Part shown: in pieces, positions 32,360 to 37,225 of the stretch
Numbering within the stretch: position 1 is the stretch's first letter
How the letters are laid out: each line of letters begins with the position of its first letter
Source of the DNA: Chlorobiota bacterium
GTDB lineage: Bacteria; Bacteroidota; Ignavibacteria; Kapaibacteriales; NICIL-2
Assembly: GCA_044228285.1 (NCBI GenBank)
Contig: JBGAVD010000006.1
Location: 66,077-130,076 of the forward strand
DNA length: 64,000 nucleotides
Direction: 5' to 3'
Notes under the pieces: model-generated
Database searches by the model: none
What the model was told of the DNA's origin: nothing
The model's input: only the letters and a program-made list of their open reading frames with translations
Made by a program: the position numbers and the translations under genes

Positions 32360-32950
32360 TTGAACCCGACGAAACCGAAGGAAAGCCTAGTTGTGAAGAA
32401 GCACTTAATCGTTCTCTCCGCGCCTTCTGGTGCCGGTAAAACTACCGTCGCCCGACACCTCCTGCGAACATTCCCAAGCTGGCGCTTTTCCGTGTCGGCC
32501 ACCACCCGCAGCATGCGCCCAGGTGAAGTTCACGGAAAAGACTACTTCTTTTTAAGCAGAGAAGAATTCGTACACCGAGTTGGTTCTGGCGACATGATAG
32601 AGTACGAAGAGATCTTCGGAAACCTCTACGGCACCCTGCGCTCAGAGGTCCAACGCAGCATCGATTCCGGACAAACCATTCTGTTTGACGTAGACGTAAA
32701 AGGAGCAATCTCACTGCGCCACGCATTTCCAGACGATACCCTTCTCATCTTCATAGCCCCACCAAACCAAGAAGTTCTTGAACAGCGCCTACGCTCTCGC
32801 AGCACAGAAAGCGAAGAACAACTCTCGCTCCGTCTAGAACGCGCCGAAATGGAAATGTCACTCCTCCATGAATTCGACGTCAGCATCATCAACGATGACC
32901 TACACGAAACACTAACAAAAGCCGAAGACGCAGTCCGAGGTTTCTACTAA
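32360..32950 (+). CDS. gmk: Guanylate kinase
   Basis: SAPSGAGKTT, SVSATTR..RPGE..GKDYFF, YGT, DVDVKGA. The start may be GTG 32393. Confidence 0.96.
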   Translation: MNPTKPKESLVVKKHLIVLSAPSGAGKTTVARHLLRTFPSWRFSVSATTRSMRPGEVHGKDYFFLSREEFVHRVGSGDMIEYEEIFGNLYGTLRSEVQRSIDSGQTILFDVDVKGAISLRHAFPDDTLLIFIAPPNQEVLEQRLRSRSTESEEQLSLRLERAEMEMSLLHEFDVSIINDDLHETLTKAEDAVRGFY

Positions 32951-33000: not shown

Positions 33001-33650
33001 GCGCAAACAAAAACAAAGCCCCAAAGGGGCGCATTATCTCAGGGCAGCTCACCGCAAAGCGGTGGGCTGTCGTGCGTAATGTGCAAACAAAAGAGAAGCC
33101 CCAAAGGGGCGCATTATCTCAGGGCAGCTCACCGCAAAGCGGTGGGCTGTCGTGCGTAATGTGCAAACAAAAGAGAAGCCCCGATGGGGCGCATTATCTC
33201 AGGGCAGTCCCGAGCAACGCTCGGGGTTGTCATACCCAAAGCGTAGAAAACAGAAAAGCCCCGAAGGGGCGCATTATCTCAGGGCAGTCCCGAGCAACGC
33301 TCGGGACTGCTACACTCGTAACGCTGGCTGTCGCACGTATAGCGCAAACAAACGAAAAGCCCCGAAGGGGCGCTTTAACTCAGGGCAGCTCACCGCAACG
33401 CGGTGGGCTGTCGTGCGTAATGCGCAAACAAACGAGAAGCCCCAAAGGGGCGTATTAACTCAGGGCAGTCCCGAGCAACGCTCGGGGCTGTCATACGCAA
33501 AGCGTAGAAAACAGAAAAGCCCCGAAGGGGCGCATTATCTCAGGGCAGCTCACCGCAACGCGGTGGGCTGTCGTGCAAGCAGCGCATAGATACGAAAAGC
33601 CCCGAAGGGGCGCATTATCTCAGGGCAGTCCCGAGCAACGCTCGGGGCTG
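33001..33650 (+). repeat. Head-to-tail array of eight ~80-bp multi-hairpin REP-like units
   Basis: AAGCCCC(G/A)A(A/T)GGGGCG starts at 33017, 33097, 33177, 33257, 33358, 33438, 33518 and 33598. Each is followed by the linker ATTATCTCAGGG and a second hairpin in two alleles. Confidence 0.92.
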
Positions 33651-34870
33651 TTGTACTAAAGACGACAGCTGTCGTTCTGAATCCACGGCTATTGCTCCAA
33701 AAGACAAGGGCTGTCCAACTATAAACAATGGCCGTTATACAATCGACGAGCGCTGTCGTTCTGAATCCACGGCTGTTGCACCATACGAGGGCTGTCGTAA
33801 TATAAAACGTGGGCTGTCCAACTATAAACAATGACCGTTATACAATAGACGAGCGCTGTCGTTCTGAATCCACGGCTGTTGTACCATACGAGGGCTGTCG
33901 TAATATAAAACGTGGGCTGTCCAACTATAAACAATGGCCGTTATACTATAGACGAGCGCTGTCGATCTGAATCCACGGCTGTTGTACCATACGAGGGCTG
34001 TCGTAATATAAAACGTGGGCTGTCCAACTATAAACAATGACCGTTATACAATAGACGAGGACTGTCGTTCTAAATCCACGGATGTTGTATTCAACGTGGG
34101 CTGTCCAACTGTAAACGATGGTCGTTAAACAATAGACGAGGACCGTCATTCTGAATCCACGGATGTTGTATTAAACGTGGCCTGTCCAACTGTAAACGAT
34201 GGCCATTATACAATAGACGAGGACTGTCCTTCTAAATCCACGGATGTTGTATTAAACGTGGGCTGTCCAACTTCAAACGATGGCCGTTATACAATAGACG
34301 AGGATTGTCGTTCTGAATCCACGGATGTTGTATTAAACGTGAGCTGTCCAACTGTAAACGATGGCCATTATACAATAGACGAGGACTGTCGTTCTAAATC
34401 CACGGATGTTGTATTCAACGTGGGCTGTCCAACTATAAACAATGGCCATTATACAATAGACGAGCGCTGTCGTTCTGAATCGACGGCTGTTGTACCATAC
34501 GAGGGCTGTCGTAACATAAGACAAGGGCTGTCCAACTATAAACAATGGCCGTTATACAATAGACGAGCGCTGTCGTTCTGAATCCACGGCTGTTGTACCA
34601 TACGAGGGCTGTCGTAACATAAATCAAGGGCTGTCCAACTATAAACGAGGGCCGTTATACAATAAACGAGGACTGTCGTTCTGAAACCACGGATGTTGTA
34701 TTAAACAAGGACTGTCCAACTATAAACGATGGCCTTTATACAATCGACGATGGCTCTCGTACTGAAACCGAGGACTGGCTATGCTACATCGACGGCCGTT
34801 ATACTGTATCCATAACTGTTATACGCGAGGGCTGGTTACACCAATAACGCTGGCTGTCGAACTAACCGAG
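33651..34870. repeat. Higher-order tandem repeat of 103-bp and 81-bp units built from ~21-bp modules
   Basis: CTGTCGTTCT(G/A)AATCCACGG-like anchors at 33669, 33753, 33856, 33959, 34062, 34143, 34224, 34305, 34386, 34467, 34570, 34673 and 34754 (gaps 84,103,103,103,81,81,81,81,81,103,103,81), decaying to ~34870. Confidence 0.92.
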
Positions 34871-34924: not shown

Positions 34925-37225
34925 CTACATCACCCTCATCCCCTGCACCTGCGGTGCAAAGGTCGAACCCTGTGCCAATCGCTTCCACACACCTTCCAAC
35001 TCACGAATAACCTCTTCGCGGTTCTGCATAAGAGCATGTTCCACCCCTCTACTGAGCTGCTCACGGAATTGCAACAGAATAAGCGACGAGGCCAATTGTG
35101 GTGAGAGCGCATTGCGCAACTCTCGAAGCTCAGGTACTAATCGATCAACAAAGCCATCAAGGGCAGACTGTTCCTGTTCCTTGCGGTGTTCAAGGAGGAT
35201 GAATGGCTGGAGCGACTTCTCGAGCAGCGATAACTCGCTCTGCGCTGGAACGAGGCGCGCAAAGATGAGACCCAACTCATCTTGCATCTCCCGTGTATCA
35301 TCAAACACTTCCACCCGCTGCTCATCGGTGCGATGTGCCTTGGCTCGCGAGTGTAAGTTCTTCATCCTGTCTTTCTGCAATTGAATAAACTCGCGAAGCT
35401 CTGCAATACGCTCCTGAGCTACTTCAACATGGACTTGGGAATGCTGTACTTCGTCGAGCACCGTATTGCGACGACGCTGCATCAGTCTATCAGCAATACT
35501 CTGCGTGTTACTGATCTGCACTTCGCTTTGGGTTTTTACAATGCTGTCGAGCGCTGCGCGCGAGGCTTGTAATGAGCGCACTGTGTCAGGACACATATAC
35601 TCCAACATGGTGCGCTGGGTAGCATCGCACTCAAACCAGAAACGACGACCCTTTATCTGCGCATCACGAAGCATGGCCTCAATCCAACCGCTGGCAACAG
35701 CTGTGGAGCTATGCTTTGATAACAAACTACGTTCGTCTTCAACTGTCGTCCACCAATCACGGAATACTGCGCGCGCCTGACGTGGACTGAGCACGGAGTC
35801 CCGACTCAACGCCGACACAAACTCCTCACGAAGCTGTGGCAATGAGGTTTCCGGCATAAGAAGCAGCGGCGACACCGCGCTCCACCATGCAGCAAAAGCA
35901 TAGTGCGTACGAATCTCTGCATTCTTCAGCGTCGGTGCGGACGACACCGCTACGCGTACAAGAGCGTGGTCATGAAAGGTAGGCCGAAAGAAATCATTGC
36001 GCTTGCTCTTCTGGAAGAACGAGTGAATGTCCAAGCCGCGCTGAATCATCTGCGAGTCTAGCTCAACAAACTGTGTTGTGCTTAGAGCTCCAGGATAACT
36101 GTCGCGCTGGTATGCAAAGAGAGGCGCTGTTGTGCGCATCCCTGGCAGTACACGGGAGGAGCTAAGGATGTCGCTGCGATGCAACACTCGACAATGATTG
36201 CCGTTGTTCGCAAACTGATCTCGCGCTTCAATGATGCTTTCTATGCTGAGTCCGTCGAGGCTCGGACCATCCTGCGCGTCCATGTGGTCATAAAACAACA
36301 CACGGTGACGTCGCTCTACACTCTTGCGACCACGAAGTATCATGATATGCCAGGTTGGACGTAGATGTCCGTGCAGACTAATCACACTATCCAACACATC
36401 TCGCTCTAGGAGTAAGGACATGTCGGCACGACGTAACTGTTGCACTACCTCATCGGTCATGAGGACAGCCGCCACACTATGCTCAGCCATACATCGAAGA
36501 ATACCTGAGAACGACGGCGGAGCATCTCGCCGCTCCACAAAAATGCGATCAAACAAACGAGCAGTTTTATGCGCTTCAAAGGCACGTCCCCACTCTTGGA
36601 ACTCAAGCTGCAAATCACAGAGTACTGCAAGCAAACTGGTTAAGCGCAATGCAAAGGGATCAGCATCCTCCGCTCGTAATCGAATCTTACGAGGTAGAAC
36701 ACTCATGTGCTGTTCTTCCGTGACGCTTCTCTGCGCTACTGCAGCACGCAATCCACTACCGCAGCCCACATCCAGAACCGAGGCTCCAGCGTTAAGCGGA
36801 ATGAGCGCAGGAAAGAGTGTTGCAAGAAAAGAGGATTCTCGAAGGTCGGCATGCTGGAGCACAAAGGCTTCTGCTGCACGAGCAACTAATGCTTGGTCAT
36901 CACAACGCAGAGTATGCAGAGCACTGAGTACGGATCGAACAACGCCAGGCTCAATGCGGTGTCCGGCAGGGTCACGCTCAAACGAAACATCAGCACTCAA
37001 GCCTTGGAGCAAAGGGTTAGTGCGCTCAGCAGCACGTAAGGCATTGTGCAAATTCGAGGCAAGTGCGCTGAGCGATTGTTGTGCGGGAGGAAGCAGGCGA
37101 GCTCGTTGCAGACACAACAGAGCAAGGATGTGCGAGCGAAAGTCGACACCATGCGCAGCTTCGCCTAGCATTTCTAAAGCTGCGTTACATTCTCGGAGAA
37201 TATCGGTTGGTGTTGACACACTCAT
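34925..37225 (-). CDS. Divergent type I R-M HsdM-like protein with SAM motif I but no recognisable NPPF/Y motif; coiled-coil C-terminus
   Basis: HsdM_N-like ILALLCLQR..ERTNPLLQGL..F; VLDVGCGSG; FDRIFVE where FD.V..NPPF is expected; LLERDVLDSVISL; RVLFYD; heptad-rich region at ~560-700. Confidence 0.6.
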   Translation of the reverse strand: MSVSTPTDILRECNAALEMLGEAAHGVDFRSHILALLCLQRARLLPPAQQSLSALASNLHNALRAAERTNPLLQGLSADVSFERDPAGHRIEPGVVRSVLSALHTLRCDDQALVARAAEAFVLQHADLRESSFLATLFPALIPLNAGASVLDVGCGSGLRAAVAQRSVTEEQHMSVLPRKIRLRAEDADPFALRLTSLLAVLCDLQLEFQEWGRAFEAHKTARLFDRIFVERRDAPPSFSGILRCMAEHSVAAVLMTDEVVQQLRRADMSLLLERDVLDSVISLHGHLRPTWHIMILRGRKSVERRHRVLFYDHMDAQDGPSLDGLSIESIIEARDQFANNGNHCRVLHRSDILSSSRVLPGMRTTAPLFAYQRDSYPGALSTTQFVELDSQMIQRGLDIHSFFQKSKRNDFFRPTFHDHALVRVAVSSAPTLKNAEIRTHYAFAAWWSAVSPLLLMPETSLPQLREEFVSALSRDSVLSPRQARAVFRDWWTTVEDERSLLSKHSSTAVASGWIEAMLRDAQIKGRRFWFECDATQRTMLEYMCPDTVRSLQASRAALDSIVKTQSEVQISNTQSIADRLMQRRRNTVLDEVQHSQVHVEVAQERIAELREFIQLQKDRMKNLHSRAKAHRTDEQRVEVFDDTREMQDELGLIFARLVPAQSELSLLEKSLQPFILLEHRKEQEQSALDGFVDRLVPELRELRNALSPQLASSLILLQFREQLSRGVEHALMQNREEVIRELEGVWKRLAQGSTFAPQVQGMRVM

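Follow-up and report, generated by a model that had tools for sequence, protein, structure and literature searches.

Of the domesticated transposases that have their own population of short repeats, those of REP/RAYT systems are the best known, and what is known of them concerns mainly class 2 enzymes, in Proteobacteria and Cyanobacteria. Here, an array of eight two-hairpin units downstream of gmk is described from a Chlorobiota bacterium (GTDB lineage Bacteria; Bacteroidota; Ignavibacteria; Kapaibacteriales; NICIL-2; GenBank assembly GCA_044228285.1). The array lies in a stretch of 64,000 nucleotides, called the window below (contig JBGAVD010000006.1, positions 66,077 to 130,076 of the forward strand; C5:66077-130076 in our numbering). 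Coordinates without a prefix are window positions, G000 is the window's genome, and C4, C6, C7 and similar labels are its contigs. We consider it likely that the array is a REP/RAYT-like pile-up of non-autonomous repeats, and that the partner is a small Y1 HUH (IS200-like) protein that is encoded elsewhere and acts on single-stranded DNA.

Acido-Lenti-1 (Rfam RF01687) is a candidate small RNA (sRNA) of unknown function, and it is still described as such in a 2026 preprint. In Weinberg et al. (2010, PMC2864571) it is marked 'RNA? y' (probably RNA) and assigned to Acidobacteria and Lentisphaerae, and the available portion of that paper states no link to a Y1 gene. Subclass 1.2 of the TnpA-Y1 proteins is reported without REPs in the accessible part of Quentin et al. 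(2018, PMC6006769). A search of full-text literature, mostly without subscription journals, returned nothing linking Acido-Lenti-1 or any repeat to subclass 1.2 genes.

The two-hairpin unit and its folding strand

Read 5' to 3', each unit of the array (array 1) consists of a purine-rich lead, hairpin 1, a linker and hairpin 2. A sequence-only reading of the stretch had proposed an 80-bp array of GCCCC-NAN-GGGGC hairpins, and the array is as proposed. GCCCC-NNN-GGGGC matches eight times (starts at 33018, 33098, 33178, 33258, 33359, 33439, 33519 and 33599), the middle base of the loop is A in all eight units, and Tandem Repeats Finder reports a period of 80 at 33003-33287 (87% matches) and at 33326-33661 (77%), with higher-order periods of 160, 181, 261 and 341. 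Successive hairpin 1 starts are 80, 80, 80, 101, 80, 80 and 80 nt apart. Seven units are 80 nt long, and unit 4 measures 101 nt because it carries one additional copy, of ~21 nt, of the hairpin 2 foot; this extra segment is one 20-mer of the type from which the adjoining array 2 is built. The linker had been called near invariant, and ATTATCTCAGGG is indeed unchanged in six of the eight units, reading TTTAACTCAGGG in unit 5 and ATTAACTCAGGG in unit 6 (consensus, (A/T)TTA(T/A)CTCAG).

Hairpin 2 occurs in two versions with a compensated stem, in the order A, A, B, B, A, B, A, B, as had been described. Its stem is 13 bp and not the 11 bp first given, because GG...TC lengthens it. The base, GGCAG...CTGTY, is constant, the apex exists in versions A and B and is fully compensated, and in most units the stem includes two G-T pairs on the + strand. 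The unit had further been described as three-hairpin, with a third covarying stem. Over the unit junctions, a 5-bp helix is present at two of the seven internal junctions, weaker at four and absent at one, so that the third stem of the array is weak, and it draws on only two unit types.

The sequence-only reading had argued, from stem imperfections that are mostly G-T on the + strand, that structure appears to be selected on that strand. Scoring 18 pairs in each of the eight window units gives 127 Watson-Crick and 17 G-T pairs on the + strand, with 0 A-C and 0 other combinations. All 17 imperfect pairs are thus G-T, and since no A-C or other mismatch occurs among the window pairs, the strand argument is correct. 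When folded as RNA, the + strand is better than the - strand in six of the eight units, with units 3 and 4 slightly better on the - strand. When folded as DNA, the + strand is better in all three units tried, with z values of -3.6 and -3.8 for two window units.

Covariation was assessed in a larger alignment of 32 copies from G000, comprising window units and dispersed copies. These are 32 of 37 hits obtained with nhmmer; the five left out have insertions or rearranged half-units (C7:492992-493092, C8:705071-705169, C8:705231-705310, C8:705307-705386 and C2:43600-43686). The covariation predicted from the window alone is upheld in this alignment. In the two-hairpin structure, 97.9% of 575 cells are paired and both-sided changes occur at 12 of 18 pairs. 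None of 500 shuffles does as well as the real alignment, and pairing falls to 37-47% when the partner is displaced by 1-3 columns. G-U and A-C cells stand at 88 to 7 in the 32 own-genome copies. In 80 copies from other genomes they stand at 59 to 6, a count that is biased by the fitting of that alignment to R1, the covariance model built from the 32 aligned copies. The wobble pairs mark the + strand of the unit as its folding strand.

Dispersed copies and the Y1 HUH genes

The nhmmer profile, built from the eight window units and searched over the G000 genome at E<=0.01, finds 29 further unit copies on contigs C2, C4, C5, C7 and C8, in both orientations. Several of them form inverted pairs with foot 20-mers on the outer sides. 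A typical dispersed locus has a reversed unit and a forward unit on either side of a short spacer, with foot 20-mers continuing outward from each, those next to the reversed unit also in reverse, and at one locus a Y1 gene takes the place of the short spacer. The earlier statement that all units are head-to-tail, with no inverted pairs, is true of the window array and fails at these other loci of G000. The foot 20-mers occur only with the window's sub-family, always 3' of hairpin 2, and their sequence outside the foot varies by locus; arrays of them like array 2 lie beside the unit at the C4 Y1 gene and at other loci of the sub-family (3 loci besides the window's).

Scanning R1 over the genome and its relatives, another step that had been suggested, yields 137 matches in G000 at E<=0.01, most of them in head-to-tail arrays with 68-80-nt periods, and hits in 8 of 40 relatives. 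The window's sub-family amounts to 29 clustered copies at 7 loci in G000, and eleven singleton 10-mer matches are at about chance level. Head-to-tail arrays are the normal state of the element in G000 and are not special to the gmk site; the repeat superfamily is abundant in G000, and the array is one ordinary member of it. Copies next to the C4 Y1 gene have hairpin 2 in version A, and those on C7 and C8 have it in version B. Each version is found at other loci, which makes the window array a mosaic of two sub-lineages. The two versions did not arise in place from a single mutating founder.

G000 contains 94 tandem-repeat regions of at least 200 bp (39,655 bp in total) and is unusually repeat-rich for a 4.3-Mb bacterial genome. 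Several unrelated palindromic families are among them, for example a GAGACGCGATT-CATCGCGTCTC hairpin with 80-194-nt periods and a 106-nt CTCTGCGTGA...TCACGCAGAG family.

No transposase had been seen in the window, and none of the six PF01797 matches in G000, three of which are strong, lies within it. A candidate for the linked TnpA(Y1)/RAYT gene that the sequence-only reading proposed to look for is found outside the window, on contig C4. Three units (-) stand to the left of this gene and one unit (+) to its right, with hairpin 1 gene-proximal on both sides. The right side continues into about 20 foot 20-mers (20.4 copies by Tandem Repeats Finder), and the left side has similar 19-20-mers in reverse. 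A 15-nt tandem repeat of 14 copies, located between the left units and the gene (L002:980-1190; G000:C4:9027-9236), overlaps spurious open reading frames (ORFs).

For the products of the two other strong Y1 genes, on C6 and C7, identity to the C4 protein is 38% and 46%, and each of these genes is flanked by its own two-hairpin sub-family. Both sub-families are amplified elsewhere in G000, to 28 copies at 6 loci for the C6 family and 59 copies at 7 loci for the C7 family. Three paralogues correspond to three sub-families, one repeat sub-family per gene. In the congener G005, an orthologous Y1 gene is followed by six head-to-tail units, and their hairpin 2 differs from that of the G000 C6 family by compensatory changes.

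The three strong Y1 proteins share DHVH, WQ, Y...Q..HH and a C-terminal DERYVWD. The tyrosine motif reads YIARQKEHH, that is, Y...Q..HH, and residues H55, H57, Y115, Q119, H122 and H123 are invariant in 11 Y1 sequences from several phyla. Against NF033573, the NCBIfam model for IS200/IS605 transposases (cut-off 55), the three proteins score 75.2, 67.6 and 68.8 bits, and the nearest solved structures are IS608 TnpA (2a6m, E 3e-5) and ISDra2 TnpA (2xm3). The three weaker Y1_Tnp genes (C7:304730-305332, C5:27417-28214 and C10:39417-40067) have the class 2 motifs YIHLNP, YIHQNP and YIRNNP, and two of them adjoin other palindromic tandem arrays (C7:305388-305714 and C5:27126-27399). G000 may host six gene-repeat pairs of two classes.

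Association between gene and repeat was then assessed in other genomes, at 80 homologue loci (39-54% identity) from Bacteroidota, Planctomycetota, Ignavibacteriota, Chlamydiota, Desulfobacterota, Verrucomicrobiota and others. At E<=1e-4, 75 of the 109 R1 hits in these loci fall within 200 nt of the gene ends, a density of 2.43/kb near the gene ends as against 0.107/kb in the remainder of the loci. At least one near hit is present at 51 of the 80 loci, and hits on both sides at 16. Near hits are mostly inverted about the gene (32 upstream on + and 24 downstream on -, versus 8 and 11 in the reverse sense), and the C4 locus has the rarer of the two inverted arrangements. Across the 40 relatives, which as kin are non-independent, seven have the gene and R1 hits, one has a single repeat hit alone, four have the gene alone and 28 have neither. 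A match to Flavo-1 RNA (50.4 bits; gathering score, 42) was also recorded at L021:735-820 (-), a few hundred bases from a subclass 1.2 gene in a Ferruginibacter metagenome-assembled genome.

The units beside these genes are not new to Rfam. In an Rfam scan (E<=0.01) of 14 homologue loci, they are RF01687, with scores of up to 52.7 bits against a gathering score of 37. In G000, 34 RF01687 matches from sub-families other than the window's pass the threshold, the best at 51.8 bits. The window units themselves reach 17.9-20.4 bits and miss the threshold of 37, and they match with the hairpin 1 half only, their linker and hairpin 1 aligning to the 3' half of the model. The window units are therefore divergent long-stem relatives and not formal members of RF01687. 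No identity to a described REP family with a known RAYT was found, and the kinship with RF01687 lowers the structural novelty of the unit.

RF01687, being Rfam's own model and independent of R1, was compared with the presence of the Y1 gene (E<=1e-25) in a 150-genome phylum sample. The gene is present in 21 of 28 RF01687-positive genomes and in 46 of 122 negative genomes (cross-tabulated by eye). Of the 107 RF01687 hits listed, 20, spread over 10 genomes, are no more than 600 nt from a listed gene copy, and in one complete relative a single one of its 12 RF01687 hits is next to a gene copy. The genus g53 (G051, G066, G097, G113, G142 and G169; 2.1-2.6 Mb) has 1-8 RF01687 matches per genome and no subclass 1.2 gene at E<=1e-25; its repeats may be orphans left after gene loss or may have a more divergent partner.

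The gmk spacer and alternative explanations

The whole 1975-bp spacer downstream of gmk is repeat DNA, made up of the eight units and of array 2 (Table 1), whose sub-repeats are grouped in fives and fours into higher-order units of 103 and 81 nt, respectively. Of six congeners, four (G001-G004) have only 35-50 bp between gmk and a convergent ~770-aa gene that is conserved beside gmk there, and G006 has another neighbour beside gmk. In G005, the spacer is ~2.8 kb and contains an Abi_2 gene along with units that belong to another sub-family. A short spacer in four congeners and a long one in two species indicate that the repeat DNA was inserted and then expanded, and that the site was hit in two species. 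For the target sequence, an empty-site comparison found the intergenic DNA of the congeners too diverged to align.

The Abi_2 gene of G005 (L122:3998-4960, - strand) encodes a 321-aa abortive-infection-like protein (E 3.1e-57) and lies among two-hairpin units; it may have been carried as cargo between the repeats, or have inserted on its own at a hot spot. The 766-aa ORF that borders the spacer in the window has only a weak PCMT methyltransferase match (36 residues, E 1.4e-4). Metagenome runs that contain the stretch carry bioreactor and wastewater labels.

Table 1 Positions of the repeat arrays, their parts, the bordering genes and the candidate partner gene.
Feature	Position	Strand	Remarks
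Array 1, eight two-hairpin units head-to-tail	33001..33661	+	R1 model 79-90 bits, all eight
Unit 1	33001-33080	+	
Unit 2	33081-33160	+	
Unit 3	33161-33240	+	
Unit 4	33241-33341	+	
Unit 5	33342-33421	+	
Unit 6	33422-33501	+	
Unit 7	33502-33581	+	
Unit 8	33582-33661	+	
Hairpin 1, example from unit 1	33018..33030	+	5 bp, NAN loop
Hairpin 2 version A, example from unit 1	33043..33071	+	Version A in units 1, 2, 5, 7; version B in units 3, 4, 6, 8
Extra ~21-nt segment of unit 4	33306..33341	+	Second hairpin 2 3' foot (GGCTGTCG...) without 5' arm
Array 2, ~1.2 kb of 19-22-nt sub-repeats	33662..34862	+	Each opens with the hairpin 2 3' foot GGCTGTY
gmk (guanylate kinase), left border of spacer	32360..32950	+	Guanylate_kin E 3.8e-45
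Convergent 766-aa ORF, right border of spacer	34925..37225	-	
Y1 HUH gene, 150 aa	G000:C4:9533-9982		Pfam Y1_Tnp PF01797 90.7 bits

Following Rfam, the units could be read as tandem structured sRNAs, perhaps cut into RNAs of ~46-80 nt with a trans-acting or protein-titrating role, in which case the association with Y1 genes would reflect regulation or hitch-hiking. Strong covariation and wobble asymmetry are consistent with such RNAs, as are the scores of up to 51.8 bits with which related G000 sub-families pass the RF01687 gathering score, and the 'RNA? y' mark given to Acido-Lenti-1 in the portion of Weinberg et al. (2010, PMC2864571) available to us. On the - strand, moreover, every one of the eight units ends in a terminator-like hairpin (hairpin 1) plus a T-rich run. 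However, this terminator-like strand, which is Rfam's, is the strand on which the wobble pairs turn into A-C. Array 1 contains no promoter-like site, and the region as a whole has 3 sites against 2.9 in shuffles, all of them in array 2. Occurrence in both orientations, with inverted pairs placed around a gene or a short spacer, follows the logic of DNA ends; the foot 20-mers, with one arm missing, cannot fold; and the window units reach only 17.9-20.4 bits against RF01687. We therefore regard an array of sRNAs as unlikely. The sequence-only reading had offered both a REP-derived element, served by a Y1/HUH enzyme and structured on one strand, and a structured RNA formed by read-through from gmk. 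The first part is supported by the C4 gene with its flanking inverted units, the dispersed family and the strand asymmetry, and the gmk read-through part gained no positive support.

Hairpins in a convergent spacer might also be kept by the host, wherever they came from, as cis elements that insulate or stop transcription from the 766-aa gene on the - strand and protect the 3' end of gmk mRNA on the + strand. Classical REPs are known to affect transcription termination and mRNA protection, and the position of the array between convergent genes would suit both roles. The - strand has 8 terminator-like sites, and the region has 9 against 3.6 +/- 2.2 in shuffles. Among the 12 single-orientation arrays of G000, 4 lie between convergent genes, 2 between divergent genes and 3 among co-directional genes, and in all three co-directional cases the folding strand is the sense strand. 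Yet the two arrays between divergent genes are at odds with these roles, four of six congeners do with a 35-50-bp spacer, eight units plus 1.2 kb of foot repeats far exceed the needs of termination, and the link to Y1 genes is left unexplained. Selection by the host for these functions is thus quite improbable as the explanation of the array, which may well act in termination or protect mRNA as a side effect.

A plain minisatellite, in which one founder unit is expanded by slippage or unequal crossing-over with no dedicated enzyme, would account for the head-to-tail layout and for the higher-order periods of 160, 261 and 341 nt. Metagenome assembly contigs (from four DNA runs) break inside both arrays; one contig of run X2 (depth 4.9) joins 33092 to 33594 and skips 501 nt, and one of run X3 (depth 2.4) goes back 80 nt. 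These junctions are indistinguishable from assembly collapse and were not used. Against an origin by slippage alone, the array mixes two hairpin 2 versions that are each present at other loci, the unit is dispersed over at least 7 loci, and the stems are kept by compensatory change, so that we hold this explanation to be very unlikely. Slippage probably acts on copy number, but it explains neither the origin nor the spread of the unit.

A protein-binding DNA array of iteron- or centromere-like type, whose binding sites would be the ~20-nt GGCTGTY sub-repeats, at about two helical turns, and in which the hairpins would play no part, is also very unlikely: the heptamer is conserved at a regular 19-22-nt spacing over 1.2 kb and similar arrays occur at 3 other loci, but the 20-mers are found only beside hairpin 2 of this sub-family and always in the 3'-foot orientation, their sequence outside the foot varies between loci, no partition or replication gene was seen beside the 20-mer arrays, and the covariation of the stems is unexplained.

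Three other candidates were rejected. The ORFs of 128, 145 and 134 aa within the arrays match no Pfam family and are repeat artefacts, which removes a coding role. The anatomy excludes a CRISPR or integron attC array, as the units abut without spacers or cassettes. A CsrA/Rsm-type sponge was dismissed since RsmY scores 21.4 bits against a gathering score of 57 and the linker places CAGGG at the foot of a stem and not GGA in loops.

Proposed mechanism and comparison with known systems

The biochemistry of IS608 TnpA and of E. coli TnpA-REP provides the basis of analogy for how a Y1 protein could act on the units. By this analogy, the + strand of the unit would fold when the DNA is single-stranded, and a Y1 dimer would recognise the hairpins together with the conserved linker, which ends in YAG (CAG or TAG across phyla) just 5' of hairpin 2. 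Cleavage would proceed via Y115, with the metal held by H55 and H57 and the site set by the linker, and the DNA ends would be rejoined. New copies would land beside old units, because each unit would carry a recognised site, and would build up head-to-tail arrays. Unequal recombination or slippage would reshuffle the arrays afterwards, giving rise to the higher-order 160-341-nt periods. The arrays of foot 20-mers may be repeated partial products of the same process, which is the least supported step. Any effects on transcripts, whether from the terminator-like hairpins of the - strand or from 3'-end hairpins of the + strand, would be secondary, as they are for classical REPs. Binding and cutting of the units by the Y1 protein are proposed from a link that is positional and statistical.

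Several observations weigh against the interpretation of the array as a REP/RAYT-like pile-up. The link between Y1 gene and unit is positional and statistical. Covariation with G-U pairs is equally expected of a structured RNA, and the pair counts from the 80 foreign copies are biased by an alignment fitted to R1. The association is also incomplete: no near R1 hit (E<=1e-4) is found at 29 of the 80 homologue loci, 4 of the 11 gene-positive relatives have no R1 hit, and 7 of the 28 RF01687-positive genomes, six of them in one genus, have no gene at E<=1e-25, which counters a strict one-to-one link. At its foot, hairpin 2 lacks the GT[AG]G that is canonical for REPs, and GTAG precedes hairpin 1 in only 7 of 32 copies. 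The folding strand of the 12 single-orientation arrays is the locally C-rich strand in 8 and not in 4, opposite to the expectation from IS608, although the small sample and weak skews make this orientation inconclusive. Lastly, the authors of the Rfam family graded it 'probably RNA' in the accessible part of Weinberg et al. (2010, PMC2864571), and the available part of Quentin et al. (2018, PMC6006769) reports no REP for subclass 1.2.

We favour, with somewhat less confidence than for the array itself, a broader proposal that Acido-Lenti-1 and its long-stem relatives are not RNA genes but single-stranded DNA substrates of subclass 1.2 Y1 HUH proteins. If so, two orphan families, Acido-Lenti-1 and subclass 1.2, would explain each other. 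REP-type systems would then extend to a two-hairpin, YAG-tagged, head-to-tail form with foot 20-mer by-products, and this extension would span Bacteroidota, Planctomycetota, Chlamydiota, Desulfobacterota and other phyla. The array would thereby lead to a second, class 1 lineage with another repeat architecture and a much wider phylum range, and an abundant Rfam family would be offered a candidate partner and a testable function. There are also practical consequences. These repeats break short-read assemblies and produce false ORFs of 128-145 aa, and in annotation pipelines the better-matching sub-families become sRNA genes, probably on the wrong strand.

Among described systems, the REPtrons of E. 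coli, Pseudomonas and Stenotrophomonas resemble the G000 loci in many respects. In both, a low-copy, non-IS-like Y1 HUH gene (IS, insertion sequence) lies between inverted palindromic repeats, the repeat is also dispersed in intergenic DNA away from the gene, and every paralogue is paired with a repeat family of its own. The hairpins are imperfect and strand-asymmetric, and the repeats are clustered in composite arrays. However, the enzyme here is of class 1 (Y...Q..HH, subclass 1.2), whereas that of REPtrons is of class 2 (Y...NP). The repeat has two hairpins and a conserved linker (a core of ~55-60 nt) instead of one 20-40-nt palindrome, it lacks the GT[AG]G foot at hairpin 2 and has YAG (CAG or TAG) preceding that hairpin, and its arrays are mostly head-to-tail, with 68-101-nt periods, and not alternating. 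Arrays of foot 20-mers, carried by the window's sub-family, are a further difference. The BIMEs of E. coli likewise consist of regularly spaced, alternating REPs, whereas the eight window units are all direct and inverted pairs occur at other G000 loci.

Similarity to IS200/IS605 elements such as IS608 and ISDra2 lies in the match to the Y1 TnpA profile and, by analogy, in a chemistry that would be guided by hairpins on single-stranded DNA. The gene copies here are old paralogues (38% and 46% identical to the C4 protein) and not near-identical recent IS copies, the end hairpins are inverted (at C4 and at most homologue loci) and not on the same strand, and there are far more repeats than genes, with repeats also present where there is no gene. 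RF01687 and the units have both hairpins and the linker in common, read on opposite strands. The second hairpin is ~6-8 bp in RF01687 and 13 bp in the window units, and Rfam files the sRNA on the strand that turns the wobble pairs into A-C mismatches. The Y1 proteins agree with TnpA-Y1 subclass 1.2, as characterized in the available part of Quentin et al. (2018, PMC6006769), in DH[IV]H, WQ, YI..Q.EHH, a length of ~148 aa and a conserved C-terminal tail, as well as in low copy number and low identity between copies. They differ from that description in that the genes here are flanked by a conserved two-hairpin repeat and have homologues in many more phyla.

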